Source of the DNA: a bacterium
Lineage (GTDB): Bacteria; ARS69
NCBI GenBank assembly: GCA_046330135.1
Contig: JAXLTI010000003.1
Location: forward strand, 387,913 to 451,912
Direction: 5' to 3'
DNA: 64,000 bases
Part shown: positions 4,427 through 64,000 of the stretch, piece after piece
How the letters are laid out: each line of letters opens with the position of its first letter
Numbering within the stretch: position 1 is the first letter of the stretch
Translations under genes and position numbers: made by a program
Notes under the pieces: model-generated
Seen by the model: only the letters and a program-made list of their open reading frames with translations
Databases searched by the model: none
What the model was told of the DNA's origin: nothing

Positions 4427-4681
4427 ACGTATCTGGACTCCTCCCACAAGGGGCTTTCATCGAGGCGGGGTGGGGCGGACCGGGATCGTGACTGCAGTCG
4501 TATCTCCGGCCTGTGGTGGGTGCTTGGGAACCCCTGGCCAAGATGGAGAGTCGCGCGCGGGGAGCCAATCGGCGGTTCACGACCCCAAGGGGTCAAGTAG
4601 CCAGACGGCTTTCCCCCGCGCCGGTCAGAGCCGGTTCGCCATCATCCCGTGTCTCGACGCAAGCCATTCGAGCGGGGGGAT
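4427..4681 (-). ncRNA. Candidate IS110-family bridge RNA in the 3' non-coding end of the IS (hypothesis)
   Basis: This 255-bp non-coding stretch has lower GC than its surroundings. It contains CCCTGGC (4533-4539, identical to left-flank 4419-4425) and GAGTCGC (4548-4554, the reverse complement of right-flank 5799-5805) within 26 nt. It also has a second copy of the terminal CGTATCT (4499-4505 versus 4428-4434). Confidence 0.3.
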
Positions 4682-42373: not shown

Positions 42374-42470
42374 GACCTCCGTTTGCGCGCCCGGTCCGAT
42401 TCCCCGCGACGAATCCCGCCGTATATTACGGGACCCTGATAGGCCCAACCAGTCGTAGGAGGCCCCCCCG

Positions 42471-43907: not shown

Positions 43908-43976
43908 CACGCGCCGCAGGCCGGCTCTTCGTCTGCACCCGGTTCGTGCGTCTCACGTCGGCCGGCCGCGGGCCGC

Positions 43977-44700: not shown

Positions 44701-44730
44701 CCCCCCGCCGACGCGACGAGCGCCGCGCGG

Positions 44731-45840
44731 CTAGGAGCCGAAGCCGCGCTTCGGGTCCCAGACGCGGCCGTCGTCGTGGCAGCCGGCGCAGGAGGGCGCT
44801 TTGCCGGGGCCGTGACCGTCGACGTGGCAGTCCTTGCAGTCCGCTTCGCGATGGACGTCGTCGAGGACGACGGCGGTGACGGCGTGGTCGAACTTCTTCG
44901 GGTCGAAGCCCTCCGCGTGGCACGACTCGCAGCGCGGATCCAGCTTCGCCGGCGTGGTCCACGGCGGGTGGCACGCGCGGCATCCGAGGTCCTTGTGGTA
45001 CCGCGCGAGCGGCCAACCGGTCGCCTCGTGGGAGAAGAGATCGGTTCCGGCCCGCCCGTGGCAGCTCTTGCAGTCCGCCTGGGGGTGGGACGAGGTCTTC
45101 TCGGCCCGATGGCACCGGAAGCACGCGTCGTGCAGGTTCACCTGCGCGAGGTCCCCCATCGGGTGCGGCTCACGCCCTTGGACGTGACAGCGCTTGCACC
45201 CCTGGTCCTCGTGGCAGACCACGCAGTCGTTCTCGTACCGGGCCGAGTGGTTCTTGTGGTGGAAGGTCACGCTGTCCCCGGCAGCGAACTTCGTCTTGAA
45301 GACGATGACGTCGCGCATCGTGAGCGGCGCGTGGGCCGAGTGGAAGGACTGCGTCGCCGCGGCTTCGCCCTTCTTCGCGTGACAGATCACGCACGAGGTC
45401 TCGCCCTCCCACTCGCGGTGGCAGCCGAGACACTGGCGATGGTACGCGCCCTTGAGATCCGGCTGCTCGAGGTGCTCGCGCGGGACCTCCACCGGATGAC
45501 ACTGGCGGCACGCCGGATGCTCGTTGCCCTGCGGCGTGTGGTGGTGGCAAAGGGTGCAGTTGCCCTGGAATCGCGTCATGCTGCTGTGCGCCTTGTGATC
45601 GAAGCGCACGCCCTCGTACAGCTTGGCCAAGTCGTCCAGCACGACGACGTCGGGACCGCGCGCCGTCCGCGTCGCCTGCGGGCGCGGGCAACTCCTCAGG
45701 CACGGATCCGCCTTCGTGGGCACCTTGCACGAGTGGCACGACGCGCAGTCGCTCCCGTTCTTCTCGCTCGCCCGCGACGTCGGGGGCGCGAGCAGCGCCG
45801 TCCCGGCGAAGAAGGCGACCAGGACCGCGAACCGCCTCAC
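44731..45840 (-). CDS. Periplasmic 13-haem cytochrome c
   Basis: The GTG overlaps the upstream stop (GTGA). Signal VRRFAVLVAFFAGTALLAPP. There are 13 CxxCH in 369 aa: CASCH, CTLCH, CRQCH, CLGCH, CVICH, CVVCH, CKRCH, CFRCH, CKSCH, CRACH, CESCH, CKDCH, CAGCH. Confidence 0.85.
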   Translation of the reverse strand: MRRFAVLVAFFAGTALLAPPTSRASEKNGSDCASCHSCKVPTKADPCLRSCPRPQATRTARGPDVVVLDDLAKLYEGVRFDHKAHSSMTRFQGNCTLCHHHTPQGNEHPACRQCHPVEVPREHLEQPDLKGAYHRQCLGCHREWEGETSCVICHAKKGEAAATQSFHSAHAPLTMRDVIVFKTKFAAGDSVTFHHKNHSARYENDCVVCHEDQGCKRCHVQGREPHPMGDLAQVNLHDACFRCHRAEKTSSHPQADCKSCHGRAGTDLFSHEATGWPLARYHKDLGCRACHPPWTTPAKLDPRCESCHAEGFDPKKFDHAVTAVVLDDVHREADCKDCHVDGHGPGKAPSCAGCHDDGRVWDPKRGFGS

Positions 45841-47948
45841 GACGCTTCCCCGGCGCCCGCCGCCGGGAGCACCGGCAGCCGCGTCACGAGCCAGCGATAG
45901 ACGACGGCGAGCGTCGCGAAGAGGCCCACCGTCACGCCGATCTCGCCGACGCTCGGGAAGTACGGCTTCTGCGCGTACGGCGGAGCGTAGGCCACGAGGA
46001 ACACGTCGATGCGGTTCAGCGCGACCCCGCCGATCACGAGCAGCGCGGCCGCCAGCAGCGCCTGCGGCGACCGTCGCCGGCGCGCGGAAGCGAGGATCAC
46101 GATCGGCGCGAGCAGTCCGAAGAGCATCTCCACGAGGAGAACGCGCGACGCCAGGTCGAAGCGGAAGACGGCACCCCATTGGTCCCGGATCGTCAGGTCC
46201 GCGACCTTCGAGATGAAGTACACGCCCACGAGCACCGGAACGATGCGCGCGAGCCGCTCGAGGAGATGGATCTCCGGCGGCCGCCGGAAGGCGCGCGCCG
46301 ACAGCAGGGACTCGAGGATGACGACGGGGTAGCCCACCATGATCGCCGACAGGAGGAAGAGGAGCGGGAGCACGGGCGTGTACCAGAGCGCGTTCATCTT
46401 GCTGGGAACGACGAGCATCAACGCGCCGAGCGACGACTGGTGCAGGCACGACAGCACCACGCCCGCCACGAGGAGGAACGGCATGAGAGCGCGCAGGACC
46501 CCGTCGGCGCGGGTCAGGACGGTCTCGACGGGCTTCTCGAACGGGCGCAAGGGACCCGGAAGGCGCACTCGACCGCGCAAGCGCTCGATCACGACCGGCA
46601 GGAACTCGAGGTACAGCACGGTCAGATACACCATGACGCACATGCCGACCTCGAAGAGCACGGAGTGCCCGGACCACATCCACGGCATGGCGGGGTGCCA
46701 GAGGCGGTAGGGTCGCCCGAGGTCGACGGCCAGCCCCAGGACCACGAAGGTGTAGCCGAGCAGCGCCGACAGCAGCGCCGGCCGTGCGATGGGCTCGAAG
46801 TCCTCGCGGTGGAAGATGTGCGCGAGCGCGGCGGTGGTGAACCCGCCGGCGGCCAGCGCCACTCCGCCCGCCACGTCGATGGCGATCCAGATCCCCCAGG
46901 GATAACGGTCATCCAGGTGCGTGACGCCGGCGAGACCCAGGACGAAGCGGGCGACCGTGAACACGAACGCCACGACGGCGAGCCCCAGAAGGGTCATCGC
47001 TGCCGGCGTGCGGAAGCTGCCCTGGACCGGGGCGGGCGACGGCGAAGGCGCGTGCGCTTGCGCGCCGCCGTGCTCCTCCCGGCGCCGGAACAGCCAGGAG
47101 ATCCCGTACAGGAGCCCGTAGAGCCCGAGCGGCGGCACGAAGTTCTTGAACACCGCGTGCTGGAGGCGCTCGGTGCGGCGCGGCGGCGCCACGGACGAGA
47201 GCGCCGGGAAGCCGAGCTGATCGAACGGCACGCCGGCCACGTACATCCACGACGTCCCCCCCACCTCGTGCTCGCCGTAGACGTGGTCCACGTAGCGGCC
47301 GGCGTGGGTCTCCCGCTTGCGGCTCGCCAACTCAAGGAGTTGCGAACGCTTGCCGAAAGTGAGGCACTGCGGCGGGCAGATCTCGACACAGGCGGGAACG
47401 GCCGTCGCATCCTCGAGCACTCGATTCGCGCACATGGAGCACTTCCGGACCCGCGGAGTCAGGGGACTCTGGTACTCGTATCCCGGGATCTGGAACGGGC
47501 ACGCGACCATGCAGTACCGGCAGCCGATGCAGCGGCCGGCATCGTAGGTCACCGGTCCCCTCTCGTTCCTCTCCAGCGCCGACACGATGCACGCCGACGC
47601 GCACGCGGGCTCGAGGCAGTGCATGCACTGCACCTTGACCCACGTGGGGTTAGCGGCGCCCTCGGGACGGAACTCGTTCACGACCGTGAAGGCCGACGCG
47701 TCCGGCCGACGCTTTTCGGCGTAGACCGAGCGGGTCTCGAACTCCGGCATCGGCCGGGCGGGCAGGCCCTGCGCCTGGTTGCACGCCCACTCGCACTTCC
47801 GGCAGCCGACGCAGAGCGTCAGGTCGCAGAGGACGCCGAAGCCGTCCGTGGGCGGCGCGGCTTCCTTCGCCTCCGCCGGCGTGGTGCCGGGCGCGGCGGC
47901 CAGGGCGCCGATCGCTCCGCAGGTTCGGAAGAATTCGCGTCGTTCCAT
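45837..47948 (-). CDS. Fusion of a Tat-exported 4x[4Fe-4S] ferredoxin subunit (NrfC/PsrB/HmcB-like) and a polytopic NrfD/PsrC-like quinol-interacting membrane subunit
   Basis: Twin-arginine signal MERREFFRTCGAIGALAAAPG. Cys clusters: CVGCRKCEWAC, CMHCLEPACASAC, CIGCRYCMVACP and CSMCANR...CVEICP. A TM anchor, a short cytoplasmic linker and about 8-10 TM helices follow (...YPWGIWIAIDVAGG...). Confidence 0.85.
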   Translation of the reverse strand: MERREFFRTCGAIGALAAAPGTTPAEAKEAAPPTDGFGVLCDLTLCVGCRKCEWACNQAQGLPARPMPEFETRSVYAEKRRPDASAFTVVNEFRPEGAANPTWVKVQCMHCLEPACASACIVSALERNERGPVTYDAGRCIGCRYCMVACPFQIPGYEYQSPLTPRVRKCSMCANRVLEDATAVPACVEICPPQCLTFGKRSQLLELASRKRETHAGRYVDHVYGEHEVGGTSWMYVAGVPFDQLGFPALSSVAPPRRTERLQHAVFKNFVPPLGLYGLLYGISWLFRRREEHGGAQAHAPSPSPAPVQGSFRTPAAMTLLGLAVVAFVFTVARFVLGLAGVTHLDDRYPWGIWIAIDVAGGVALAAGGFTTAALAHIFHREDFEPIARPALLSALLGYTFVVLGLAVDLGRPYRLWHPAMPWMWSGHSVLFEVGMCVMVYLTVLYLEFLPVVIERLRGRVRLPGPLRPFEKPVETVLTRADGVLRALMPFLLVAGVVLSCLHQSSLGALMLVVPSKMNALWYTPVLPLLFLLSAIMVGYPVVILESLLSARAFRRPPEIHLLERLARIVPVLVGVYFISKVADLTIRDQWGAVFRFDLASRVLLVEMLFGLLAPIVILASARRRRSPQALLAAALLVIGGVALNRIDVFLVAYAPPYAQKPYFPSVGEIGVTVGLFATLAVVYRWLVTRLPVLPAAGAGEAS

Positions 47949-48113
47949 CGCCTCGCGGCCTCGGAAGGGCTGCTGGAGCGAATCTACCCCCTATTCAGGA
48001 GTTGGCAATCCTCTTATCCCGATCCAGGCCCCCCGAAGGCATCACGTAACGCGTTGAAATCAAAGCGACTAGTAGGCTGCGAAAAAATCTGTCACGAAAC
48101 GGTCATGGCCCAC

Positions 48114-48142
48114 TTGAAAGTGATTCTCAGGTCCACTATTAT
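48114..48142 (+). promoter_or_regulatory. Near-consensus sigma-70-type promoter upstream of the NHL/cytochrome operon
   Basis: TTGAAA (48114-48119), a 17-nt spacer, then TATTAT (48137-48142). It lies in the most AT-rich stretch of the window, about 50 nt upstream of the ATG at 48195. Confidence 0.4.
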
Positions 48143-48194
48143 ATGGGGGACGCGCTGGGAAGGTGGGGCCGACCCAGACGTCCAGAGGAAGGCG

Positions 48195-49202
48195 ATGCGC
48201 AGCTGGATTCAGGCCGGAGTCGTCGCAGCTTGGGGGGTGGGAGCAGGCACTGCTCACGCTCTGTCACCCCGGATCGACCACGTCGACGCGACCATCAACG
48301 GTCCCTCGGCCTTCGACAGCTTCCGCCGTCCCGCCTCGCTGGCCGTCTCCCAGGACGGCCGGCTGTTCCTCGTGGGGGACACCGGCAACCACCGCATCGT
48401 GGTCTTCGACCAGTCCGGAAGGTGCCGCGGGGCCTTCCCGCTCTCTCCCTCGGACCCCGCCTCGGCCGGCGTCGAGCCGCAGTCCCTGGCCCTCGACTCC
48501 CGCGGCCGGATCTACGTGGTGGACGGTCTGGACCACCTCCTCACCGTGCTCAGCGCCCGCGGCGCCTTCGTCGCGTCGCAGACGGTGCCCACCGAGCTCG
48601 CGCCGCAGGGCGGCGAGTGGGTGCGCTCGGTGGCGGTGGCGCCGAGTGGACGGATCTACGTGCTCCACACCGGCCCGGCCGCCGGGCTCTTCAGCGAGCT
48701 CCCCGGCGGCCGCGCCAGCACGGCGCACGACATTCGCTCGGGTCTCAAGTCCCTCGTCGCGCCGGTGGCGGTGGCGGTGAGCGCGGACGAGACCCAGGTG
48801 GCGGTGCTCGATCCGGAAGCGCGGACTCAAGTGCAGGTCCGTGCGCTCGACGGGACGCTGCTGGCGTCCTTCGGACGGCACGGAGAGGGCGAAGGAACGA
48901 TGTCCCTGGCGGTGCACGTGACCTGGGGACCTTCCGACACGCTGTGGATCACGGACACTCTTCGTCACTTCATTCACGTCTTCGATGCGCACGGGGCTTA
49001 TCTCGGGCGCGTCGGCGGCTTCGGCTCTTCACCCGGGCAGCTTTCGTATCCGGTGGCCTGCGGGTTCCTCGAGGACGGTCGTCTCGTGGTTCTCGAACGC
49101 GCCGGACGCTGCCAGATCCTGGAGGTGACTCTCTCGGACTCTACGAATGGGACGCTCTCCGGAGCGTCTGTGCGTCGCTCGGCCCCAACGGTCCTGTCAT
49201 GA
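48195..49202 (+). CDS. Secreted NHL-repeat beta-propeller protein
   Basis: RBS gaggaagg. Signal MRSWIQAGVVAAWGVGAGTAHA. Repeated NHL-type blades: RPASLAVSQDGRLFLVGDTGNHRIVVFD, PQSLALDSRGRIYVVDGLDHLLTVL, ...LWITDTLRHFIHVFD, LSYPVACGFLEDGRLVVLERAGRCQIL. Confidence 0.8.
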   Translation: MRSWIQAGVVAAWGVGAGTAHALSPRIDHVDATINGPSAFDSFRRPASLAVSQDGRLFLVGDTGNHRIVVFDQSGRCRGAFPLSPSDPASAGVEPQSLALDSRGRIYVVDGLDHLLTVLSARGAFVASQTVPTELAPQGGEWVRSVAVAPSGRIYVLHTGPAAGLFSELPGGRASTAHDIRSGLKSLVAPVAVAVSADETQVAVLDPEARTQVQVRALDGTLLASFGRHGEGEGTMSLAVHVTWGPSDTLWITDTLRHFIHVFDAHGAYLGRVGGFGSSPGQLSYPVACGFLEDGRLVVLERAGRCQILEVTLSDSTNGTLSGASVRRSAPTVLS

Positions 49203-49215
49203 TGGAGGTGTAGCA

Positions 49216-50253
49216 ATGTCGGTCAAGAAGTCCCTCGCCCTGGCCGGCGTACTCGCGTTGTTGGCTCTGCCGGCATACGCAGGCGACTACCATAAGGGCG
49301 TCAACCTGGTCTGCTCCGACTGCCACGTGATGCACTACAGCCAGCAGCACGGCTACAACCCGAACGGCGGCGGCATCTACACGCCGCTCGCGAACGGGCC
49401 GGTCACGTTCCTGCTGCGCAACGACGTGAACGACCTCTGCTTGAGCTGCCACGACGGGCAGTCCTTCGCGCCGGACGTCCTCGGGGCGCACGGCAACGGG
49501 TACATCCGTCAGGCCGGCGGGCTCAACGAAGTGGGCTCCACCGGTCCGTACTTCGAAGCGGACGGCCACACGCTCGGCTCCACGGATACGGCTCCGGGCA
49601 GCAACCCCGCCTGGAACAACGCCTCCGGCCTCGAGTGCGTGGATTGCCACGCTCCGCACGGCCGAACGAGCTCCGGCGTCACGAACGGCTACCGGAACCT
49701 CTACCCGAACAGCATCACGTACTCGCGCGGTGACGTGGACGGCAGCAATGACCTCACCAAGTGGGTTTACGAAGATGTGTCGTCGGGCGTGTCCGCGAGC
49801 CACTACGGCTACGACCACCTGACGTTCAACGAGCCCGTCACCACGGCCTCGCAGTACGCGACGTTCTGCAAGGGCTGCCACACGAACTTCCACGGCGACG
49901 TGGGCGGTCCGGAAATCGGCGGCTCGGGCACGCCTCCGATCGACTTCGTCCGTCACCCGGCCGCCACCGTCAACATCGGCGCGGCGGGCGCGGGTCACTC
50001 GAGCCTGACGCAGTTCGTCGGGCACACGAACCAGATGCAGGTCATGTCCCCCACCGGCAAGCGTGCCGGCACGTTCGACGCGACCGACACGGGTCTCACG
50101 CCGTCGTGCTTCTCCTGCCACAAGGGGCATGGCAACCAGAACGCGTTCGGGCTCATCTACCTGTCCGGCACGGGCACGGTCACGGAGGAAGGCGACGATC
50201 CGACGCCGACCTACCGCGAGATGTGCCGTCAGTGCCACACGATGGGCAGCTGA
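49216..50253 (+). CDS. Secreted hexahaem cytochrome c, OmcS-like (family call from memory-based alignment)
   Basis: RBS gatggagg. Signal ...LALPAYA. Six CxxCH: CSDCH, CLSCH, CVDCH, CKGCH, CFSCH, CRQCH. The contexts are collinear with G. sulfurreducens OmcS as I recall it. Ours YHKGVNLVCSDCHVMHYS matches OmcS FHSGGVAECEGCHTMHNS. Ours FCKGCHTNFH...RHPA matches OmcS WCANCHTDIH...RHPA. The last haem lies within the final ~10 residues. The protein is rich in Gly, Thr, Ser and Asn and is loop-rich. Confidence 0.8.
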   Translation: MSVKKSLALAGVLALLALPAYAGDYHKGVNLVCSDCHVMHYSQQHGYNPNGGGIYTPLANGPVTFLLRNDVNDLCLSCHDGQSFAPDVLGAHGNGYIRQAGGLNEVGSTGPYFEADGHTLGSTDTAPGSNPAWNNASGLECVDCHAPHGRTSSGVTNGYRNLYPNSITYSRGDVDGSNDLTKWVYEDVSSGVSASHYGYDHLTFNEPVTTASQYATFCKGCHTNFHGDVGGPEIGGSGTPPIDFVRHPAATVNIGAAGAGHSSLTQFVGHTNQMQVMSPTGKRAGTFDATDTGLTPSCFSCHKGHGNQNAFGLIYLSGTGTVTEEGDDPTPTYREMCRQCHTMGS

Positions 50254-50279
50254 TCGCGTAGTCTGACCGACTCCGTCTC

Positions 50280-50309
50280 GGGCCCGGCGAACCGGCCTCC
50301 GCCGGGCCC
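50280..50309 (+). promoter_or_regulatory. Strong intercistronic stem-loop after the OmcS-like gene (no U-tract)
   Basis: gggcccggcg-aaccggcctc-cgccgggccc: a perfect 10-bp GC stem, 27 nt after the stop, inside a 112-bp gap within an otherwise tightly packed operon. Confidence 0.4.
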
Positions 50310-50365
50310 TGACGGGGCTCCTCTCCGCGACCCGAGTCGTCCCCGAGGCCGCTAGGGACGTCCGC

Positions 50366-51517
50366 GTGAGAAGTCGAGTGGTGGTGGCGGTGGCGGCGGG
50401 CTGCGCCCTCGTGCCGGCAGTGCCGTCCAGCGATCCCCTTCCGGACCCGCACGGCGATGCGTCCTCCGGCGTGCTGCGCGAAGCGACGCAGCCGTCCACG
50501 CAGGGCGCCTGCGTCCAGTGCCATCCCGCGCACGGCGTCGACGCCGGCACGGCGAAGCCCATCCTCCTCTTCACCGACAACACGAACGAGCTCGCGTTCT
50601 TCTCTCAGGGCGCCGCCGCTTGCCACGCGAACCTGCCGCTGAACTACCCGCTCGCCGAGAGCGACCGCCTCCCCGAAGGACAGCCGGACGCCGGCTACTT
50701 CGAGGCGAACGACGGAGGCACTCGGCGCGTCGGCGTCGAGTGGCGCGGGCGCTGGCCCGGCCGCCAGACGTACACGGACGGTCGCGTCGTCGGGAACGGG
50801 CACTTCGTGTCGCCGCACGCGCTCGACCCCGACATGCCGCGCAAGGATCTCCTGGGCGAAGGGCTCTGCTTCAACTGCCACGATCCGCACCCCACGCAGA
50901 ACCCCTTCGATCTCCTCGTCCACGAGTACCGATCGATCGGCGGCGCCTCCTCCCTGGGTCCGCCCCAGGAGTACGAGCTGTGCTTCTCGTGCCACGGCCA
51001 CGGCGGCCCGGCGGGGATGGATGTGGAGAACACGCGCATCGAGGACTTCTACGACAACTCCCTCAACGGACTGACGGCGGGGCACGCCATCCGTCGCAAC
51101 CCGAACGTCGCGATCTCGTGGCCGAGCTCCGTGCGGCAGGGCGACATGCTGTCCTGCTCGGACTGTCACGACGCGCACGGCTCCCGCGGGAACGACGGCG
51201 TGAGCCCCAACGCCTTCGTGCTGAGCGACGAGCGAACGGGCTGGAGCGGGCTCACCGACACGCAAAACGACCCCACGCAGTGCCGCCGCTTCTGCTTCGG
51301 CTGCCACATCCCTTCGGACGGTATCGCCGGGACCCAGACGGTGCGCGGCATCGTGATGAACACCCTGACCGACCAGGCCGGCGTGCACGCCTCCACGAAC
51401 GGCCAGAGCTGCTACGACTGCCACGGGCGGGACTACGGATCGGCCACCGGCTTCAACGTCCACCACCCGGATCCCGCCGGCGGAGTCCCCGACCCGTTCG
51501 GCCGGCAGCGGGGCTGA
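50366..51517 (+). CDS. Hexahaem cytochrome c, probable lipoprotein
   Basis: GTG start. MRSRVVVAVAAGC carries a short signal and a possible lipobox. Six CxxCH: CVQCH, CFNCH, CFSCH, CSDCH, CFGCH, CYDCH. Confidence 0.8.
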   Translation: MRSRVVVAVAAGCALVPAVPSSDPLPDPHGDASSGVLREATQPSTQGACVQCHPAHGVDAGTAKPILLFTDNTNELAFFSQGAAACHANLPLNYPLAESDRLPEGQPDAGYFEANDGGTRRVGVEWRGRWPGRQTYTDGRVVGNGHFVSPHALDPDMPRKDLLGEGLCFNCHDPHPTQNPFDLLVHEYRSIGGASSLGPPQEYELCFSCHGHGGPAGMDVENTRIEDFYDNSLNGLTAGHAIRRNPNVAISWPSSVRQGDMLSCSDCHDAHGSRGNDGVSPNAFVLSDERTGWSGLTDTQNDPTQCRRFCFGCHIPSDGIAGTQTVRGIVMNTLTDQAGVHASTNGQSCYDCHGRDYGSATGFNVHHPDPAGGVPDPFGRQRG

Positions 51518-51523
51518 TCGATC

Positions 51524-53146
51524 ATGCGGGGTGCGCGCCACGCCCGCTCCTGGCGGCGTTCGAGCCCTTGGGCGCTCGGCGGGATCCTCGGCGCACTCGC
51601 GCTCGCGAGCCCCGCGGTGGCGATCGACGGCCGCTACCTGGGCACGTACCAGGAGACGAACGGAGGCGACGACTTCCGCGCGTTCGAGCACCGCACCGAC
51701 CTCGAGGGCCGACGTCTCCTCGCCCCCGGCGTGGACGGCCTGTTCGGGGCGTCGCTCCGCTACACGACCGAGCCCGGGGTGGACAACGCCGACCTGCTCC
51801 GCAGCCGTCTCTTCGGCGAGGCGCGCGGAGCGGCCTGGCGGTTCCACGGACAGTGGCTGCCCTGGCAGGACCAAGCGCCCGGCCCCACGCCGCCGCGCCA
51901 GCGGGAGCTGGAGCTCGGAGGCGACGCTCGGCTGCTCGGGGGAGCGAACCTGGCTGCGGATTGGACGCGATCCGACCACGACTTCGTCGAAGGCGTCTCC
52001 TCCTCGGACAGCAAGCGGATCCAGGTCGCGCGCGAGTGGAACGACGTCCGGACGAGCGCCTCGTGGCGGCGCATCGAGACGGAGCCGTCCGCGTTCTCGA
52101 TCGCGGCACCCACGAGGACCACCGAGTGGCGTGGAGCGGCCGGGTGGCAGCGATCCTCGCGCACGGTCTCCCTCTCCCTCGACTCGGACGCGCTCATGAG
52201 CCGTTACACCGAACGCGAGCGGAAGCGAGACTTCCACGCGGAGACCGTGGAGAGCGAGGCCGGCTGGCGCATCGGGCGTCGCACCTCCGTGGGCGCGTCG
52301 GGGCTCTTCCGCACCGGAGCGACGGACGACAACGCCCTTCCCTCCATCCAGGACCTCGACGAGCGCGCGGTCTCCCTCCACGCCGAGCACCATCCCTTCC
52401 AGTGCCTCGTCTTCGAGGGCAGCCGGGAGTACCGCAAGCGCCAGGACTTCAACGGCGACGTGCACACGGACTACTTCCGGCTCGGAACCCGCTTCTCGCG
52501 AGAGGTCGTCCGCGCGACGACGCTCCTGTCGGGCTACCAGCATTCCGTGGAGGTCGGCGGGAACGGCGACGAGGTTCCGAACAACGACGCTTGGGTGACC
52601 CTCGAGTCCCGGGTCCGGCGGGGCGTCGTCGCCCGCGCCGACGTGCGCACGCAGGACCCGCCCGCCGGCGACGAGAACCGTCTTTGGCGGTACCTCGGCC
52701 AGGTGACGCTGGATCCCACACCCAACACGAAGCTCGACGTCGCGTGGACCCGCCAGGTCCTGCCCCGGATCGACGGCCTCGCCCAGCACGACGGCGACTG
52801 GACCTTCACGGGGTCCTGGAATCCGGGCCGGGCGAGCCTCGTGTCGTCGTTGCGCGTTCTCCGCGGGGTTGGCAGAATCGACCGCTCGGAAAAGACCTGG
52901 ACGCTCGCCACCAGCGTCCCTCTCCCTCGTGGAGGCGACGTGCATTTCGACGCTCTCCACCGCGACAACGAGTCCGCCGGCATCGCCAGCGTGGAGAACA
53001 CGTGGGGCGTGGCCATGACCGCGCAGTTGCCGCAGGAGGCGCGTTTGATGGGTGCGTTTCGTCGCACCGCGAGGACCGATCGGCCGCGCGTTCTCAGCGG
53101 CACGGTCACATTGGAGCTCAAATTCGGAATGGGAGGACGGTCATGA
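51524..53146 (+). CDS. Putative outer-membrane beta-barrel (porin-like) protein
   Basis: 540 aa with signal ...LALASPAVA and no Cys-haem motifs. Long runs of alternating polar and aromatic residues are punctuated by G/D/N turns (e.g. AWRFHGQWLPW, TEWRGAAGWQRSS, TKLDVAWTRQV, DWTFTGSWNPG). It ends ...TVTLELKFGMGGRS. Confidence 0.6.
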   Translation: MRGARHARSWRRSSPWALGGILGALALASPAVAIDGRYLGTYQETNGGDDFRAFEHRTDLEGRRLLAPGVDGLFGASLRYTTEPGVDNADLLRSRLFGEARGAAWRFHGQWLPWQDQAPGPTPPRQRELELGGDARLLGGANLAADWTRSDHDFVEGVSSSDSKRIQVAREWNDVRTSASWRRIETEPSAFSIAAPTRTTEWRGAAGWQRSSRTVSLSLDSDALMSRYTERERKRDFHAETVESEAGWRIGRRTSVGASGLFRTGATDDNALPSIQDLDERAVSLHAEHHPFQCLVFEGSREYRKRQDFNGDVHTDYFRLGTRFSREVVRATTLLSGYQHSVEVGGNGDEVPNNDAWVTLESRVRRGVVARADVRTQDPPAGDENRLWRYLGQVTLDPTPNTKLDVAWTRQVLPRIDGLAQHDGDWTFTGSWNPGRASLVSSLRVLRGVGRIDRSEKTWTLATSVPLPRGGDVHFDALHRDNESAGIASVENTWGVAMTAQLPQEARLMGAFRRTARTDRPRVLSGTVTLELKFGMGGRS

Positions 53147-53715
53147 CGCAGCCACGCCGAAGGGGGTTCTTGGTGGCGCTCGGCACGATCGTCCTCGGCG
53201 GCTGCGCCAGCCCCGCGAAGTTCCTCGATCCCCAGGCGGACCTGGGCTACTACGAGCGCGTGGCCGTCCTCCCCTTCTCGTCCCTGGCGGCCGACCGCGT
53301 GGCGGGCGACAAGGTCGCCAGCGTCTTCTTCACCGAGCTCCTCGAGTCCCACGTTGCGGCGGCGGTCGATCCCGGCCAGCTCGCTGCGGCCATGGTGCAG
53401 GCGCGCGGCGGCACGCCTCCCACGACCCCTTGGTCGGCGGCGGAGCTCGCGAAGCTCGCGGAGTCGGTGAAGGCGCAGGGCATGTTCGAGGGCGTCGTGC
53501 GCGAGTACTCCCTCGAGCGGTCCGGGCGGGACTCCTTCCCCCTGGTCTCGCTCGAGCTGCGCCTCGTCGACCCGGGAAGCGGCCGGGTGATCTGGACCTG
53601 GAGCGACACGCGACGCGGCGGGCCGGCGTTCCCCCTGTGGCCGTGGCGCGAGACTCGAACCCTGGGCGAGCTCACCGCGGACATGTGCCGCGACGCGCTC
53701 GCGACGTTGCGTTGA
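53143..53715 (+). CDS. Lipoprotein, LpoB/CsgG/TolB-N-like fold candidate (paralog 1)
   Basis: The ATG overlaps the upstream stop (ATGA). Lipobox IVLGGC. YYERVAVLPFSSLA is followed by the amphipathic ...VASVFFTELLES. Confidence 0.6.
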   Translation: MTQPRRRGFLVALGTIVLGGCASPAKFLDPQADLGYYERVAVLPFSSLAADRVAGDKVASVFFTELLESHVAAAVDPGQLAAAMVQARGGTPPTTPWSAAELAKLAESVKAQGMFEGVVREYSLERSGRDSFPLVSLELRLVDPGSGRVIWTWSDTRRGGPAFPLWPWRETRTLGELTADMCRDALATLR

Positions 53716-53726: not shown

Positions 53727-54353
53727 GTGGCGCGGTGGAGCATCCTCGTGGGGCTCGCGATCTCGGGCGCGACGGCCGGCTGCGCCAGCCCCGTGCCGCA
53801 CGCCTTCGAGGGACCGGGGCTGCCGGAAGGCGCCCGCGTGGCCATCCTCCCGCTCGTCAACTACACCACCAGCCGCGACGCCCCGGATCGGGTCACGCCC
53901 GCGCTCGGCGTCGCTCTGCGGACGCGCAAGCACCTCGACGTGGTGGACCCGGGCATCGTGGAGCAGGCGCTCGCCACGAACCCGTGGCTCTCGCCCGAGC
54001 GGATGCCTCCGGACGTCGTGGACAGCCTCGGCGTCGCCACCGGGGCGAACGCGCTCCTCGTGGGGAGTGTGCTCGCGTACGGGTACCGCGCGGGCGAGGC
54101 GCCGCAGGTTCCGGAGGTCTCGTTCGCCGTGAAGGTCGTGGAGACGCCGGGCGGCCGATGCCTCTGGAGCGCCGTGTTCTCGCGCGACGGCGCGGACCGC
54201 GAGCGCGTCTTCGGCATCGGCCGGATCGAGAGCCTCGAGAAGCTCGCCGACGAGGCCATCACGGAGCTCGTCGATACCCTCCCCGTGAGGTCGCGCACCG
54301 CCGCCGACGTCGCGGCGCCGACAGCCACCCCTGCGGAAGGAACGTCCCGATGA
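53727..54353 (+). CDS. Lipoprotein, LpoB/CsgG/TolB-N-like fold candidate (paralog 2)
   Basis: GTG 53727 follows gagggggg. Lipobox ATAGC. ARVAILPLVNYTTSRDAPDRVTPALGVAL and ...ALLVGSVLAYGY are present. It has the same architecture as the preceding gene. Confidence 0.6.
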   Translation: MARWSILVGLAISGATAGCASPVPHAFEGPGLPEGARVAILPLVNYTTSRDAPDRVTPALGVALRTRKHLDVVDPGIVEQALATNPWLSPERMPPDVVDSLGVATGANALLVGSVLAYGYRAGEAPQVPEVSFAVKVVETPGGRCLWSAVFSRDGADRERVFGIGRIESLEKLADEAITELVDTLPVRSRTAADVAAPTATPAEGTSR

Positions 54354-54964
54354 AGCGCGCCCGCCTCGCCACGCTCGCCGCCCTGTCGGCACTCGTCGCC
54401 GCCGCCGCCCTGGCGGGGCCGAGCGCGGATTCCGCCCCCTCGCCTCCGGACTCCACGAAGGTCGCGGGCTCCCCACCTGCCGCGCCGTCCACGACCCCGT
54501 CGTCTGCGGGCCCGTCGTCCGCGACCGCTGCGTCCACGGGCCCCTTTCGCGTTCGCATCGGGAGCCGGCTCTATCCGGACTGGTCCGAGGAGCGCGTGAT
54601 CGGCCTCGACGAGCCGTTCTATCTGGGGGACACGGACCTCAGGGCAACGGCGAAGCGGCACCTCCAGGACTTCAAGATCAAGAACGGCGTGGTGTACGAG
54701 GCCTCGAAGGAGCCGAACAACCCGGCGCTCTTCATCGTCGTGACTCGCGACACCTCCATCGTGGACAGCACCTGGGCTTTCCGGAACTTCCCGCCTCATG
54801 CGTCGCCCACGTCGTTCTTCACCTTCCAGCTCCTGGACCTCGCGGACTCCTCCAAAGCCACGAGCCGAGCCGCGCCGTCCGGGTCGGGCGCCGGGAAGGC
54901 CAAGGCGAAGCACCCGCACGCCGTCGCGGACTCCGCGAAGGCGAAGAAGGGCGAGGGGAGCTGA
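54350..54964 (+). CDS. Secreted protein of unknown function (low-complexity N-terminus, ~110-aa globular core, Lys/Ala-rich tail)
   Basis: The ATG overlaps the upstream stop (ATGA). Signal MKRARLATLAALSALVAAAALA. I recognise no family. Confidence 0.55.
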   Translation: MKRARLATLAALSALVAAAALAGPSADSAPSPPDSTKVAGSPPAAPSTTPSSAGPSSATAASTGPFRVRIGSRLYPDWSEERVIGLDEPFYLGDTDLRATAKRHLQDFKIKNGVVYEASKEPNNPALFIVVTRDTSIVDSTWAFRNFPPHASPTSFFTFQLLDLADSSKATSRAAPSGSGAGKAKAKHPHAVADSAKAKKGEGS

Positions 54965-54965
54965 C

Positions 54966-57900
54966 GTGACACGCTCGCGGGTCGTCGCTCTCGGTCTCGT
55001 CGTCGCGGCGGTCGCGACGTGGCTCGCCTTCACGCTGGGCGACCGCCCGGCGCTCGCCGCCCCGGAGCAGCCGCGGGCCCGCCCGTGCTACGACTGCCAC
55101 CAGCCGGCGAAGCAGAAGTTCGAGAAGGCGTCCTTCGTCCACGCGCCCGTGGCGAAGCAGGACTGCGAGGCGTGTCACAAGCGGCACGGCTTCGCACAGT
55201 CCCTGGTGCTGGCGCGCGACTTCCCCGCGCTGTGCGTGGAGTGCCACAAGGACGTCGTGAAGTCGCCCACCGCGGGCTCCTCGCACCTGGACATCAAGGG
55301 CACGAACTGCATCTCGTGCCACGACCCGCACGCTTCGAACACGAAGGGGCTGCTGCGCGGGACGCTCATCGAGACGTGCGCGTCTTGCCATCCGCGCCTC
55401 GCCGTGTCCGTCGAGTCCAGGAAGCCGCACGCGCCCTTCAAGGAAGGTCGCTGCGAAGCGTGCCATTCGTTCCACGACGCGGCCAAGCCGGGCCTCTTGA
55501 TCGCGGACGAGAAGGAGTTGTGCGCCCGCTGCCACGGAGACGCATCGAAGTTGCCGGATCTTCATGCGCGACCGGAGGTGGCGGGCGCCGCCTGCACGTC
55601 TTGCCACGATCCCCACGGCGAGCCGCCGGCCGAGCGCGGGCAGTTCATCCACCAGCCGTACGCGGCCGCGAAGTGCGACGCGTGCCATACGAAGCTGCCC
55701 GGCGACCCCGCGGCCCTGGTCGCTCCGGCGGAGCAGCTCTGCCTCACCTGCCACACGAAGACCAAGACGGATCTCACGAAGAGCACCACCCATCCACCCG
55801 CGGCGCAGGGGAAGTGTCTCCAGTGCCACGATCCGCACCGCTCCGATCTGCCGCGCCTCGTGCGCGGGAAGGCGGACGAGCTGTGCGGCGTCTGCCACGC
55901 TCCGCAGCGCGAGCAGATGAAGCTCGCGAGCGTTCATGCGCCGTTCGCCATCCAGGACTGCACGGCCTGCCACAACCCCCACGCGAGCGACCAGGCGAAG
56001 CTCCTGCAGAAGCCCCCCGAGGCGCTGTGCCGGGAGTGTCATCAGGCCGTGGTGGCCGCCGCGGACTCCGCCGCCGTTCCGCACCCCGCGATGGACGGGG
56101 ACTGCCTTGCGTGCCACGCGCCGCACGCGTCGAAGCGCGAGCCGCTGCTCGCAGGACCGCCGGACTCGCTCTGCTTCTCGTGCCACGAGGAAGTCGAGGC
56201 GGAGCGCTCCCGCCCCGTCGTTCACGAGCCGTTCCAGGGCGGCGAGTGCGTCTCCTGCCACGCCCCGCACGGCTCCGCGCACGCCGCGATCCTCCGCGAG
56301 GAGGACCCGAAGCTCTGCCTCCAGTGCCACCGCGCGCAGGCGGACGACCGCCGCAAGGCGAACGTCCACAAGCCGTTCGCGGAGGAGCGCTGCGAGAAGT
56401 GCCATGCGCCGCACGCGTCGGCCACGCCGGCGCTCCTCGTGAAGCCGCAGGGGGAGCTCTGCGCCCAGTGCCACGCCGCCGTCGCCACGGCACAGCCCGC
56501 GGCGGAGCTCCATCCGCCGGTCGCGAAGGGCCAGTGCAGCGCGTGCCATTCCCCGCACGCCTCCGACAGCGCGGGTCCGCTCCTCAAGACGCAGCCCCCG
56601 GATCTCTGCTGGAGCTGCCACTCGGATCTTCGCGACCGCCTGGAGGGCGCGAAGGTCCACAAGCCGGTCGCCGAAGGGCAGTGCAACACCTGCCACGACG
56701 GCCACCACGTCCGCGGCCCCGACGGGAAGGTCGCGCTCCTCAAGACGTGCACGTCGTGTCACGACCCGGCATCGGAGAAGCTGCGCGCGGCGCACGACGA
56801 CTTCCGCCCCGACGATGCGGCCTGCCTCTCGTGTCACGATCCCCACGGATCGACCGAGAAGGGGCTGCTGCGCCCCGTGCGCCACGAGCCGTTCGGCAAG
56901 GGCTCCTGCACCACGTGCCACGAGCCGCCGGCGCCCGGACGCAAGCCCGTGCTCGTGGAGCAGGTGCCCGCCCTCTGCGAGACGTGTCACGACCCGATCA
57001 AGGCCGGCCCGGGCCGGGAGCTTCACCCTCCCGTGGAGGCCGGGGAGTGCGTGGACTGCCACGCGCCGCACACGGCGTCGGCGCCTTATCTGGCGAAGGC
57101 GGAAGGGAAGGCGCTCTGCCTCACCTGCCACGACGACCCCACGGCGGGCCCCGACAGCACGCTCGTGCACGCGCCCGCACGGGCGGGGCTTTGCCTCACG
57201 TGCCATGGCGCGCACGAAGGCACCTCGCCCGGACTCCTGAAGACGGGCGGCGTGGCGCTGTGCGCATCCTGTCACGCCGACGTGGCGAAGCGCGCGCAGG
57301 GGCCGAACGCGCACGCTCCGGCCCGCGAGGGCCGTTGCACGGAGTGTCACGACCCGCATCAGGGCAAGCAGCGCGGGCTCCTCAAGGCGGCCATGCCGGA
57401 GCTCTGCGTGCGCTGCCACGACCTGACGAAGCCGGCCATCGTCGCCGCCCACGGCGGACGCCCGGTCACGGGCGGGCACTGCATCGATTGCCACGACCCG
57501 CACGGAACCGGAAAGAAGGGGCTCGTCTACCCGAGCGCGCACCAGCCCTACGCCCAGGGCAAGTGCGACTCCTGCCACAATCCGGGCTCCAATACGCTGA
57601 AGGCGGAAGGGGCGGCGCTCTGCGTGACCTGTCACGGCGACCACGCCGGCGACGCCACGCTGGCCGCGCCGCACGCCGCGGTCACTCAGGGGAGCGCTTG
57701 CCTCTCCTGCCACAGCCCGCATGCCGGGAGGACCGCGACGCTGCTGCGCCGGGACAGCCCTGCCGCGATGTGCTTCGCGTGCCACGACCGGTCGAAGTTC
57801 GAAGGCAAGGTCCGGCACAAGGTCGTCGACGACTGCACGACCTGCCACGCGCCGCACGGGAGCGCCAACGAGGGCCTGCTCCTCGAGCCGCAGGCGGAGC

Positions 57901-58118
57901 TGTGCGCCAGCTGCCACGACGCGGAGAAGACCCACGCCCACGTCACCGGGGCCCCGGCGATCGATCCGCGAACGGGGAAGACGCTCCGGTGCACGTCCTG
58001 CCACTCACCGCACGCGTCGGACCACGAAAGCTTGCTCAGGCAAGAAAAAGAGAGGAAGCTCTGCATTCAGTGCCACGTAGGACCCGATCTCGATGTGCCG
58101 ACGAGGGGGCCTCGCTGA
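54966..58118 (+). CDS. Giant multihaem cytochrome c with 42 CxxCH motifs (doubled-CXXCH / c7-polymer-like repeats)
   Basis: GTG 54966 lies 1 nt after the upstream stop. N-terminal signal/anchor VTRSRVVALGLVVAAVATWLAF. I counted 42 CxxCH by hand in 1050 aa. They are organised as roughly 48-aa dihaem units H-x-P-[FV]-x3-4-C-x2-CH-x-PH-x-S-x5-LL-x6-8-LC-x2-CH. Confidence 0.9.
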   Translation: MTRSRVVALGLVVAAVATWLAFTLGDRPALAAPEQPRARPCYDCHQPAKQKFEKASFVHAPVAKQDCEACHKRHGFAQSLVLARDFPALCVECHKDVVKSPTAGSSHLDIKGTNCISCHDPHASNTKGLLRGTLIETCASCHPRLAVSVESRKPHAPFKEGRCEACHSFHDAAKPGLLIADEKELCARCHGDASKLPDLHARPEVAGAACTSCHDPHGEPPAERGQFIHQPYAAAKCDACHTKLPGDPAALVAPAEQLCLTCHTKTKTDLTKSTTHPPAAQGKCLQCHDPHRSDLPRLVRGKADELCGVCHAPQREQMKLASVHAPFAIQDCTACHNPHASDQAKLLQKPPEALCRECHQAVVAAADSAAVPHPAMDGDCLACHAPHASKREPLLAGPPDSLCFSCHEEVEAERSRPVVHEPFQGGECVSCHAPHGSAHAAILREEDPKLCLQCHRAQADDRRKANVHKPFAEERCEKCHAPHASATPALLVKPQGELCAQCHAAVATAQPAAELHPPVAKGQCSACHSPHASDSAGPLLKTQPPDLCWSCHSDLRDRLEGAKVHKPVAEGQCNTCHDGHHVRGPDGKVALLKTCTSCHDPASEKLRAAHDDFRPDDAACLSCHDPHGSTEKGLLRPVRHEPFGKGSCTTCHEPPAPGRKPVLVEQVPALCETCHDPIKAGPGRELHPPVEAGECVDCHAPHTASAPYLAKAEGKALCLTCHDDPTAGPDSTLVHAPARAGLCLTCHGAHEGTSPGLLKTGGVALCASCHADVAKRAQGPNAHAPAREGRCTECHDPHQGKQRGLLKAAMPELCVRCHDLTKPAIVAAHGGRPVTGGHCIDCHDPHGTGKKGLVYPSAHQPYAQGKCDSCHNPGSNTLKAEGAALCVTCHGDHAGDATLAAPHAAVTQGSACLSCHSPHAGRTATLLRRDSPAAMCFACHDRSKFEGKVRHKVVDDCTTCHAPHGSANEGLLLEPQAELCASCHDAEKTHAHVTGAPAIDPRTGKTLRCTSCHSPHASDHESLLRQEKERKLCIQCHVGPDLDVPTRGPR

Positions 58119-58191: not shown

Positions 58192-58848
58192 ATGAGAGCT
58201 TCGATCATCTCCGTCGCGGCAGCCGTGTTCGTGTTCACGGCGGCCACGGTCCATGCGCAGGCCGCGCAGAGCGCACCCGCCAAGCCGGCGACGCCCGCGG
58301 CCCAGACGGCTCCGGCCGCCGCGGCGAGCCCGGCGACTCCGGCAGCCGGTGAGGGCCCCGGCAAGTACGTCGGCGTGGCGAAGTGCAAGATGTGCCACAA
58401 GAAGGCGGAAGACGGCGACCAGTACGACGTGTGGCTCAAGAGCGGCCACGCGAAGGCGTTCGCCACCCTCGCCAGCGAGAAGGCGAAGGCCGAGGCGACG
58501 AAGGAAGGCATCGCGGATCCTCAGAAGGACCCGAAGTGCCTGAAGTGCCACACGACCGCGGCCATGGTGGCGGACCCCGCTACCGAGAAGGTCACGATGG
58601 AAGAGGGCGTCTCTTGCGAGAGCTGCCACGGCGCGGGAAGCGGCTACTACAAGAAGAAGGTGATGGAGGATCTCCGGGCGGGCAAGGTGGACGCCAAGAC
58701 CGTCGGCTTCGTGAAGCCCACGAAGGAGACGTGCGTGAAGTGCCACACGGCGGAAGGCAACGCCTTCTTCAAGCCGTTCGTGTTCGAGGAGCGCGTGAAG
58801 GTGATCGCGCACCCGATCCCGAAGAAGGCTGCTCCGGCCGCCGGCTAG
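58192..58848 (+). CDS. Periplasmic tetrahaem cytochrome c, cytochrome c554-like family
   Basis: RBS gaaggagga. A signal peptide is followed by an Ala/Pro-rich linker. Four CxxCH: CKMCH, CLKCH, CESCH, CVKCH. The family-typical context is KYVGVAKCKMCHKK...YDVWLKSGHAKAF. Confidence 0.85.
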   Translation: MRASIISVAAAVFVFTAATVHAQAAQSAPAKPATPAAQTAPAAAASPATPAAGEGPGKYVGVAKCKMCHKKAEDGDQYDVWLKSGHAKAFATLASEKAKAEATKEGIADPQKDPKCLKCHTTAAMVADPATEKVTMEEGVSCESCHGAGSGYYKKKVMEDLRAGKVDAKTVGFVKPTKETCVKCHTAEGNAFFKPFVFEERVKVIAHPIPKKAAPAAG

Positions 58849-62851: not shown

Positions 62852-64000
62852 CTACTGGATCCGGACGACCGGCAGGTTGTCGGTGAGGGAGCCCGCGTTG
62901 GTCGACAGGAGGACGTGGAGCAGGTACGTGCCGTTCGCGACGGGCAGCCCGCGGTCGTCCCGCCCGTCCCACTCGAGACGGTGCTGGAAGTTCGCCCCGA
63001 GGCCCTGATCGCGGATCTCGCGGATCTTCCGCCCCGTCACCGTGAACACGCCGAGCGTGGCGTGATCGATGGCGCCCGTGGTCTTGAACGCCACGGAAGT
63101 TCCGCTCGAGAACGGGTTCGGGAAGGCCACGGGGCGGTCCAGGAACCGGAACGTCGTGTCGGTGCGCAGGACGAAGCTGCTCGTCTTGCCGGTCCCGTCC
63201 ACCGCCTCGAAGCGCACGTCGTACGACTCGTTGGCCCGGAGCGTGAACGAGCGCGTCAACGTGACGATCTGGTTGACGCCGTCCGTGGTCTGACGGTCCA
63301 CGTGCGTCGTGTAGTCGGTCGCGGGGATCTCGCCGCGCTCGGTGTCGACGATGCGCGTGGACACGATCCCGCGCCCGTCCGAGGCCGTGACCTGCACCGT
63401 GATCTCGCCCGGGAACTCCCGGGCGCTGGCGAAGTACGGGTCCGTGACGTCCTCCACGTCCGCGCCGTTCACCTTCGCGGTGAGCGTGGGGCTCCCGAGA
63501 TCGGGGGACAGCGCCGGATCGCCGAGCAGGATGAAGCGCTGCGCCGCCTGGCGGAACTGGCCGTCGAAGGGCTGCACCGCCTGGTACTCCAGGCGGGCGC
63601 GGGTCGTCGACTCGCCGAGCGTCCAGACGTATGCGCCGGGCACGCCGTCGTCCGGCAGCGGGCTGCCGACGAGGGCGCGCTCCGGCCGGAAGAAGGAGTC
63701 GAGAACGAAGTCGTTGAGCTGCGTGTTCGGCGTCAGGAACTCGAACCCGGAGCTGGCGAAGGCGCCGATGCTCCCGGCGGGACGGTTCTGTTCCGGCGTG
63801 CGGACGTTCATCATCTTCTCCGACAGGCAGTCCTCCGCCGCCAGCTCGTCGTCGCGGGCGAACTCGGCGAGGTGACACGCGAAGCCCAGGAAGATGAAGG
63901 GCCGGTCCACGTTCGTCAGCGTCTGGACATCGTGGCGTTCGAGCGTGTCGTCGCGCCAGATGACCTCGTGCGTCAGGAAGTACTTGTTCGCGTGGCCCTC
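62852..64000 (-). CDS. Peptidase C25 (gingipain)-like protein, C-terminal part, with a FlgD-Ig/T9SS-type C-terminal domain (5' end beyond the window)
   Basis: The frame is open to the window edge (...NKYFLTHEVIWRDDTLERHDVQTLTNVDRPFIFLGFACHLAEFA). Ig-like middle domains follow. The C-terminus AFPNPFSSGTSVAFKT...GVFTVTGRKIREI...VANGTYLLHV matches the CTD of the 28717 gene. Confidence 0.55.
   Translation of the reverse strand, partial: EGHANKYFLTHEVIWRDDTLERHDVQTLTNVDRPFIFLGFACHLAEFARDDELAAEDCLSEKMMNVRTPEQNRPAGSIGAFASSGFEFLTPNTQLNDFVLDSFFRPERALVGSPLPDDGVPGAYVWTLGESTTRARLEYQAVQPFDGQFRQAAQRFILLGDPALSPDLGSPTLTAKVNGADVEDVTDPYFASAREFPGEITVQVTASDGRGIVSTRIVDTERGEIPATDYTTHVDRQTTDGVNQIVTLTRSFTLRANESYDVRFEAVDGTGKTSSFVLRTDTTFRFLDRPVAFPNPFSSGTSVAFKTTGAIDHATLGVFTVTGRKIREIRDQGLGANFQHRLEWDGRDDRGLPVANGTYLLHVLLSTNAGSLTDNLPVVRIQ

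Follow-up and report, generated by a model that had tools for sequence, protein, structure and literature searches.

The decahaem cytochrome MtrA carries 10 bis-histidine (bis-His) ligated haems in a chain of 80 Å and sits inside the 26-strand β-barrel MtrB (PMC7198977). A second system, the "large multiheme cytochrome" operon described by Skennerton et al. (2017, PMC5539420) in SEEP-SRB1, Geobacter, Anaeromyxobacter and Desulfurivibrio, places the gene of a 26-haem cytochrome beside genes for a 16-haem cytochrome, an NHL propeller and a peptidyl-prolyl isomerase (PPIase). GSU2495 of G. sulfurreducens, with a mass of ~70 kDa, is a 26-haem protein (PMC12977616). Genome surveys have already revealed giant multihaem cytochromes, and the 26/16-haem system is known but functionally uncharacterised. 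The stretch of DNA described here (the window) comprises 64,000 nucleotides of contig JAXLTI010000003.1 (positions 387,913 to 451,912, assembly GCA_046330135.1) from a bacterium of the GTDB lineage ARS69 and contains, at 54966-58118 in window numbering, a gene for a single polypeptide with 42 haem-binding motifs that corresponds along its length to the 26- and 16-haem proteins joined end to end. It differs from the described system by this fusion, by the lack of a PPIase and in its hosts. The claims made below for the identity of the protein are, taken together, close to certain. A literature search found no paper mentioning a 42-haem cytochrome, which is not proof that none exists, and the 26- and 16-haem proteins could not be mapped onto the OetA/OetB proteins of Murali et al. 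2023.

The GTG start codon of the 42-haem gene lies 1 nt past the stop codon of the upstream gene with GAGGGGAG in front, and analysis of G+C content at third codon positions (GC3) shows a switch of coding frame just ahead of position 54966. This start is preferred over the ATG at 54798 because the latter would overlap the upstream gene. The translated protein has exactly 42 CxxCH motifs in 1050 amino acids, in agreement with a count made by hand in an earlier interpretation of the same DNA from its letters and translated reading frames (the sequence-only reading), and contains none of the variants CxxxCH, CxxxxCH or CxxCK. All 84 cysteines are located inside CxxCH motifs and the histidines total 89. 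Shuffled versions of the protein average 0.56 CxxCH motifs with a maximum of 4, and the other five frames across the gene have none. Residues 4-26 form the sole hydrophobic segment, as had been noted before, and are modelled by AlphaFold2 (AF2) as a helix spanning residues 3-25. This segment is assigned to a Sec-type signal peptide with a likely signal peptidase I site, placed by the AxA rule between PALA and AP. The signal peptide lacks a lipobox, as do 76 of the 84 sequences of the 42-haem class, and most homologues have no cysteine ahead of the first CxxCH. The mature protein after the predicted cleavage would have 1019 amino acids, corresponding to 24 amino acids per haem and a mass of ~108 kDa for the apo form and ~134 kDa for the holo form.

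The protein is a member of the doubled-CXXCH domain families with 21 matches to Pfam Paired_CXXCH_1 (PF09699; E = 2.6e-213, 690 bits compared with a cut-off of 20.6) and 21 matches to TIGR01905 (642.6 bits compared with a cut-off of 25.2). These matches bear out the dihaem unit of the sequence-only reading, whereas its description as ~21 dihaem repeats does not survive closer inspection of the haem ligands. Each haem was given a code from nearby conserved histidines, with A denoting a histidine 8 residues before the motif, B a histidine 3 residues after the previous motif, T both histidines and o neither. The family consensus reads oABABABAT, oABABABABABABABAT, oABABABAT and oABABoB from the N to the C terminus, so that the aligned sequences describe four modules of 9, 17, 9 and 7 haems and not 21 plain repeats. 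The A-T-o junctions occur three times, at haems 8-10, 25-27 and 34-36, and these are the places where a third haem had earlier been seen to extend the unit. The literal consensus proposed for that unit matches only once in the protein, whereas a relaxed core, H-x6-9-CxxCH-xxH-x14-18-CxxCH, recovers 14 pairs.

An alignment of 70 homologous sequences has all 42 motifs as invariant columns, together with 38 invariant histidines outside the motifs. Four further histidines (His-200, His-903, His-990 and His-1016; H200, H903, H990 and H1016 in the alignment) are conserved in 76-99% of the aligned sequences, giving 42 conserved non-motif histidines as candidate distal ligands for the 42 haems. No methionine is conserved among the aligned homologues. 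This combination suggests that all 42 haems are probably bis-His ligated, as in MtrA.

Searches for homologues also return a second size class of ~650-690 amino acids with exactly 26 CxxCH motifs and a 9+17 code, and the haem number of this class peaks as sharply as that of the 42-haem class. A 25- or 26-haem protein is encoded in 46 GTDB loci, of which the 27 with a readable downstream multihaem gene were compared (the split loci). The gene directly downstream encodes a 16-haem cytochrome (15 haems in one locus), most of them coded 9+7. The best BLASTP segments place the 26-haem protein on residues ~39-652 of the 42-haem protein and the 16-haem protein on residues ~670-1037 in 27 of 27 loci. 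Modules 1 and 2 are the counterpart of the 26-haem family including GSU2495, and modules 3 and 4 are the counterpart of the downstream 16-haem cytochrome. The sum of 26 and 16 haems and the colinear homology to both proteins, with the haem order 9+17 and 9+7 (the latter in most split systems but not all), mean that the 42-haem protein is a fusion of the pair. Where the split systems have two genes each with a signal peptide, here there is one open reading frame (ORF) for one polypeptide with one signal peptide and no internal one.

The junction between the two halves, haems 26 and 27, is an 18-residue Pro/Gly-rich linker, EPPAPGRKPVLVEQVPAL. The split systems have at this position a stop codon, a short gap or overlap and then the signal peptide of the 16-haem protein. 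The split 26-haem proteins examined end 1-5 residues past their last CxxCH, and the first CxxCH of the mature 16-haem proteins follows a few residues after the N terminus, an arrangement that fits end-to-end haem contact. In the fused forms the linkers are short and variable without a remnant of a signal peptide. Fused forms occupy at least three positions in a neighbour-joining tree, a crude one that carries no support values, and in one locus (L023) the junction, set beside those of the split neighbours L040 and L070, looks as if the stop codon and signal peptide had simply been deleted. The fusion seems to have happened more than once, and its recurrence argues that the 26- and 16-haem proteins work as one unit.

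The 42-haem family is not rare. A search space of 5.8 billion proteins yields ~70 full-length homologues of 986-1100 amino acids from several phyla, which align with 95-99% of the query at 33-39% identity. The number of CxxCH motifs is exactly 42 in 69 of 71 full-length homologues. The full-length fused form is found in 69 protein clusters and in 15 species genomes, at least 84 sequences in all. It is carried by Eisenbacteria, Krumholzibacteriia, Latescibacterota, Zixibacteria, GN15, Ignavibacteria and some Acidobacteriota and not by the Desulfobacterota and Myxococcota that have the split pair. A look-up gives no record of the window's own protein, and databases list its homologues under generic names, for example "cytochrome c3 family protein" and "Doubled CXXCH motif". 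An exhaustive scan for relatives returns 645 proteins at E ≤ 1e-30, most of which are shorter paired-CXXCH cytochromes. The 42-haem protein is not the largest of its kind as two distant metagenomic relatives, P0142 (3592 amino acids) and P0259 (3274 amino acids), have 131 and 129 CxxCH motifs, respectively, with a different repeat of one haem per unit of ~25-27 amino acids.

The periodicity that the sequence-only reading saw in the DNA of the gene is real but weak. The recurrent 15-mer it had picked out occurs exactly only twice in the gene, whereas 10 copies are present when up to two mismatches are allowed, compared with 0.5 expected across the whole window. Repeat spacings are multiples of ~144 nt with copies 60-87% identical. 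Tandem Repeats Finder reports no array of a 144-nt unit in the gene and only four short unrelated rows. The long shadow ORFs on both strands had been put down to this periodicity. Equally long ones lie over the non-repetitive intervals 46179-49202, 50180-52960 and 50518-53715 and they are therefore attributed to the G+C content of the window (70%). With copies this divergent and no array there is nothing for an assembler to collapse, and a collapse of repeats or a mis-assembly is ruled out by the divergent copies together with 42 motifs kept in register in independent assemblies from several phyla.

The AF2 model of the 42-haem protein, calculated with the family alignment, has a mean predicted local distance difference test score (pLDDT) of 82.5 and little regular secondary structure. 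MtrA (PDB code 6r2q, chain A) is the sole significant PDB match both by sequence (phmmer, E = 7.3e-17) and by fold (Foldseek, E = 1.8e-6, template modelling score 0.55 on the target). The TIGR03508 model for MtrA/DmsE scores 428.6 bits compared with a cut-off of 192.2, a score that is summed over nine partial stretches of a repetitive protein. Paired CxxCH units and, probably, bis-His haems are shared with the decahaem cytochromes MtrA, DmsE, PioA and MtoA, which go with MtrB-type barrels (PDB code 6R2Q), and the MtrA-like fold is found here. The size is clearly different, with 42 haems in 1050 amino acids compared with 10 haems in 333 amino acids in MtrA, well outside the ten haems in 300-350 amino acids of the MtrA/DmsE family. 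At the haem pitch of MtrA, a straight chain of 42 haems would extend ~36 nm, one of 26 haems ~22 nm and one of 16 haems ~13 nm.

Nine + strand genes between 48195 and 58848, closely spaced or overlapping, include the 42-haem gene, and a tRNA-Asp follows the last of them (Table 1). The operon encodes a large predicted β-barrel in addition to the cytochrome. In the best AF2 model (pLDDT 83.4) the barrel is all-β with 28 strands, and a Foldseek search of the PDB ranks MtrB first (6r2q, chain B, E = 7.2e-10). Pfam gives no match at all for the 540-residue barrel protein and hence none to the MtrB_PioB family. It occurs together with PelC-like lipoproteins, and an MtrC-type decahaem cytochrome is lacking. 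A tblastn search with the barrel against the related loci gives no matches, proteins in the same operon position in other phyla are 11-16% identical, and BLASTP detects no similarity to a 775-residue protein of Geobacter sp. AOG1. Only five homologues of the barrel are detectable among the same 5.8 billion proteins, and together with the low identity of the proteins in its position this indicates that the barrel evolves much faster than the cytochrome. A fragment of the barrel gene in the public run SRR26348416 is 100% identical over 60% of the query, and this run probably includes the source organism of the window.

Both lipoproteins upstream of the giant gene are homologous to PelC over nearly their full length. 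Lipoprotein 1 matches PelC 9h80 chain C (phmmer, E = 5.8e-5) with weak Pfam matches to GNA1162/LpoB, and lipoprotein 2 matches both 5t11 chain A (E = 6.5e-6) and 9h80 chain C (E = 5.8e-5). Two PelC-homologous paralogues accompany the 42-haem and the 26-haem genes in most of the loci examined, across phyla. Most split loci whose flanking sequence is long enough have them upstream of the 26-haem gene as well, and in Geobacter sp. AOG1 the order is the 775-residue protein without a Pfam match, the PelC-like lipoproteins and then a SurA-like PPIase. The upstream lipoproteins and a large protein without a Pfam match, a possible barrel, are thus shared with the 26/16-haem system, as is the NHL propeller gene, whose product here is consistent with a six-bladed NHL propeller. 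We know of no described porin-cytochrome system with PelC-like lipoproteins. In the exopolysaccharide exporter PelBC, PelC forms a 12-mer ring with a 3.2-nm pore at the periplasmic rim of the barrel made by PelB, and an elongated domain of PelB runs through this ring (PMC12141448). The locus differs from PelBC (PDB codes 9H80 and 5T11) in the 28 strands predicted for its barrel instead of 16 and in having no Pel synthesis genes.

The place of the SurA-like PPIase is taken here by a 204-residue protein of no known family, which tblastn detects immediately upstream of the 42-haem gene in 11 fused loci. BLASTP shows no similarity between this protein and the PPIase of locus L024 or of Geobacter sp. 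AOG1, and domain scans find no rotamase (SurA-like) domain in any protein of the operon. The accessory hexahaem cytochromes also differ from those of the split systems. A PDB sequence search gives nothing useful for hexA or the 204-residue protein and a weak match of hexB to a putative multihaem cytochrome (9yuq, chain N, E = 0.003). In four Eisenbacteria loci (L004, L005, L006 and L009) the hexB slot holds a 9-haem cytochrome of ~500-560 amino acids, so that the accessory cytochromes are interchangeable around a constant 42-haem protein. Latescibacterota, Krumholzibacteriia and Eisenbacteria have the partners of the operon with the 42-haem gene in the same order, and GN15, Zixibacteria and Ignavibacteria have them in a different order.

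Several sequences outside the operon are recorded here as separate observations. Region 1-5600 of locus L018 has a lipoprotein ORF with 25 CxxCH motifs, followed closely by more CxxCH-rich sequence. The region precedes the fused 42-haem gene of that genome by a few kb and may be a split 26+16 copy. The fused gene of L018 is preceded by a 532-residue protein with an N terminus that appears SurA-like by eye. In P0093 and P0112, SurA/rotamase domains are fused N-terminally to a 22-26-haem cytochrome, suggesting a dedicated chaperone for very long apo-cytochromes. In the window, the interval 43910-44730 between convergent cytochrome genes contains three repeat units of ~150-200 nt each, two direct (44318-44505 and 44516-44705, with 78-97% identity between segments) and one in inverted orientation (44005-44151). 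A long hairpin with arms of 32-43 nt and a loop of ~82 nt makes up each unit, and none reaches the gathering score of an Rfam family. The C-terminal region of the protein encoded at 62852-63910 on the − strand is PorU-like (type IX secretion sortase), with a score well below the model cut-off. It hints weakly at a host in the Fibrobacterota-Chlorobiota-Bacteroidota (FCB) group, in line with the taxa that provide the best homologues of the operon.

Table 1. Coordinates of the 42-haem cytochrome gene, its parts and the neighbouring genes in the 64,000-nucleotide window
Feature	Position	Strand	Basis
42-haem c-type cytochrome, 1050 amino acids	54966-58118	+	ORF, motif and domain evidence
Sec-type signal peptide (predicted), residues 1-31	54966-55058	+	Hydrophobic segment, AF2 helix
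Module 1, haems 1-9, oABABABAT	55086-55688	+	Haem code
Module 2, haems 10-26, oABABABABABABABAT	55740-56921	+	Haem code
Fusion linker, 18 amino acids	56922-56975	+	Junction comparison
Module 3, haems 27-35, oABABABAT	56976-57578	+	Haem code
Module 4, haems 36-42, family consensus oABABoB	57621-58076	+	Haem code
NHL-repeat β-propeller	48195-49202	+	GC3 frame analysis, translation, NHL-type match
Hexahaem cytochrome hexA, with signal peptide	49216-50253	+	Motifs, linkage
Hexahaem cytochrome hexB, probable lipoprotein (AAGC)	50366-51517	+	Motifs, linkage
Predicted 28-strand outer-membrane β-barrel, MtrB-like, 540 amino acids	51524-53146	+	AF2, Foldseek
PelC-like outer-membrane lipoprotein 1, lipobox LGGC	53143-53715	+	phmmer against PDB, linkage
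PelC-like outer-membrane lipoprotein 2, lipobox TAGC	53727-54353	+	phmmer against PDB, linkage
Secreted 204-residue protein without family assignment	54350-54964	+	Linkage, tblastn
c554-like tetrahaem cytochrome, last gene before tRNA-Asp	58192-58848	+	Domain match
CbcL-like protein, 11-haem cytochrome fused to cytochrome b	40472-42553	−	Inner-membrane module
NapC/NirT-like 5-haem protein	42471-43907	+	Inner-membrane module
Multihaem c3-type protein, partner of the 4Fe-4S/NrfD fusion	~44731-45900	−	Inner-membrane module
4Fe-4S plus NrfD fusion	45837-47948	−	Inner-membrane module

By analogy with the Mtr systems, the 42-haem protein is proposed to be the static, fixed-length electron wire of a porin-cytochrome conduit across the cell envelope, a reading to which a probability of roughly 0.6 is given. 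It draws on the gene and its haem count, the homology and fusion, the linkage within the operon and the fold matches. The Sec-exported protein, with its MtrA-like fold, would act as the single-chain form of the 26+16 unit, its haems forming one continuous chain along which electrons hop from haem to haem. A straight chain of ~36 nm would be enough to reach from the face of the inner membrane across the periplasm and into or through the barrel. One segment would sit in the barrel as MtrA does in MtrB, perhaps by way of a collar of the PelC-like lipoproteins, while the remaining chain would span the periplasm or project outward. The chain would in this way link inner-membrane and periplasmic cytochromes with the outside of the cell, the quinol-oxidoreductase-type modules of the inner membrane being encoded just upstream; the bis-His ligation, the length of the chain, the barrel threading, the collar and the direction of electron flow are the parts that we infer. 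The sequence-only reading had likewise envisaged a long haem wire between inner-membrane modules and an outer-membrane conduit, and this idea fits the MtrA match, the MtrB-like barrel and the adjacent CbcL-like, NapC/NirT-like and NrfD/iron-sulfur modules. Threading through the barrel, taken by itself, is less likely than the role as a conduit wire.

A number of points weigh against the conduit wire. The 26/16-haem homologues are reported to be unexpressed in metal-respiring Geobacter, Anaeromyxobacter or Desulfuromonas and to have no known physiological function, electron uptake having been proposed instead (PMC5539420). The predicted TM-score (pTM) of the 42-haem model is only 0.59, which bears on the straightness and the end-to-end length of the chain. 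The barrel was modelled from an alignment of six sequences (five database homologues), with one of five models confident. In one Zixibacteria locus (L001) the giant gene is found with the gene for the small secreted protein, and no barrel or hexahaem genes are present within 10 kb. Either hexahaem cytochrome, and not the giant, could be the occupant of the barrel.

A stronger form of the proposal, tentative and considerably less probable than the conduit wire itself, is that the strictly conserved count of 42 haems, in one chain or as 26+16, serves as a molecular ruler. In this picture a ring of the PelC-like lipoproteins under the 28-strand MtrB-like barrel would hold a rigid rod of MtrA-like structure so that inner-membrane quinol oxidoreductases are wired directly to the exterior. 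If so, periplasmic electron transfer in these bacteria would be static and not diffusive, and a new porin-cytochrome architecture would be common to phyla of the FCB group, Geobacter, Anaeromyxobacter and the sulfate reducers that live as partners of methane-oxidising archaea.

The alternatives are taken in order of the weight given to them, which runs from a periplasmic store through a surface wire, cleavage and a c7 polymer to an artefact. In the first, the protein would be soluble in the periplasm and store up to 42 electrons to buffer respiration when acceptors are scarce, neither threaded into the barrel nor docked to it. The cleavable signal peptide and the lack of both a lipobox and a membrane segment are compatible with such a protein, the prediction of Skennerton et al. 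places the 26- and 16-haem proteins unattached in the periplasm (PMC5539420), and the Zixibacteria locus described above lacks a nearby barrel. Storage would not obviously call for a precise number of haems, whereas phylum after phylum retains 42 and 26, and the repeated end-to-end fusion points to linear contact. Given in addition the consistent linkage to a barrel and PelC-like lipoproteins, a storage role is considered unlikely.

Carrying about the same low weight is a cell-surface wire, in which the chain would lie mostly outside the cell, anchored by the barrel, and extend ~20-30 nm to minerals or partner cells. It would be a one-molecule alternative to the OmcS- or OmcZ-type filaments. 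The lack of a lipobox in most of the 42-haem class stands against this location, whereas about half of the 26-haem homologues have a lipobox-like N terminus as in the surface cytochromes MtrC and OmcB. The operon encodes no export route for a 134-kDa holo-cytochrome. The split pair has itself been proposed to function in extracellular electron uptake in the partners of methane-oxidising archaea (PMC5539420; PMC10553843). The OmcS, OmcE and OmcZ filaments and the c7 polymers share with the 42-haem protein the common purpose of packing haem chains for long-range electron transfer. Filament length results from polymerised small subunits, however, whereas here it is fixed by one gene, and neither PDB sequence searches (E ≤ 1e-3) nor the Foldseek list shows any similarity to the filament cytochromes.

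Cleavage after export into smaller cytochromes, for example at the linker between the 26- and 16-haem halves, is improbable. Other lineages make both parts separately and the Pro/Gly-rich composition of the linker could suit a cut, but the fusion persists in at least 84 sequences whose short and variable linkers retain no trace of a signal peptide, and the function would be unchanged if the halves stayed associated. Still less probable is the c7-type polymer similar to GSU1996 that the sequence-only reading had taken as its analogy. Pfam Cytochrome_C7 does score 169.7 bits, summed over nine stretches, but the GSU1996 structure (PDB code 3OV0) is matched neither in sequence at E ≤ 1e-3 nor in fold. 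The c7 polymers (GSU1996, GSU0592 and GSU2210) are built of triheme domains that include a His-Met haem, features not found in this protein with its two-haem units and lack of a conserved methionine. An assembly artefact with a wrong number of repeats, about which the sequence-only reading had been concerned and which the internal repetition of the gene with its 144-nt period might invite, can be dismissed given copies without long exact repeats and orthologues from several phyla that keep exactly 42 motifs.

The gene fusion indicates that the 26- and 16-haem cytochromes work as one end-to-end unit of 42 haems, a hypothesis that is testable in cultured carriers of the genes. The fixed haem number, 42 or 26+16, across distant phyla suggests that length itself may be under selection, which bears on how electrons cross a periplasm of 20-30 nm. 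The constant presence of PelC-like lipoproteins with a large MtrB-like barrel points to an undescribed outer-membrane cytochrome complex, and with this locus little-known lineages of the FCB group gain a complete candidate system for extracellular electron transfer.

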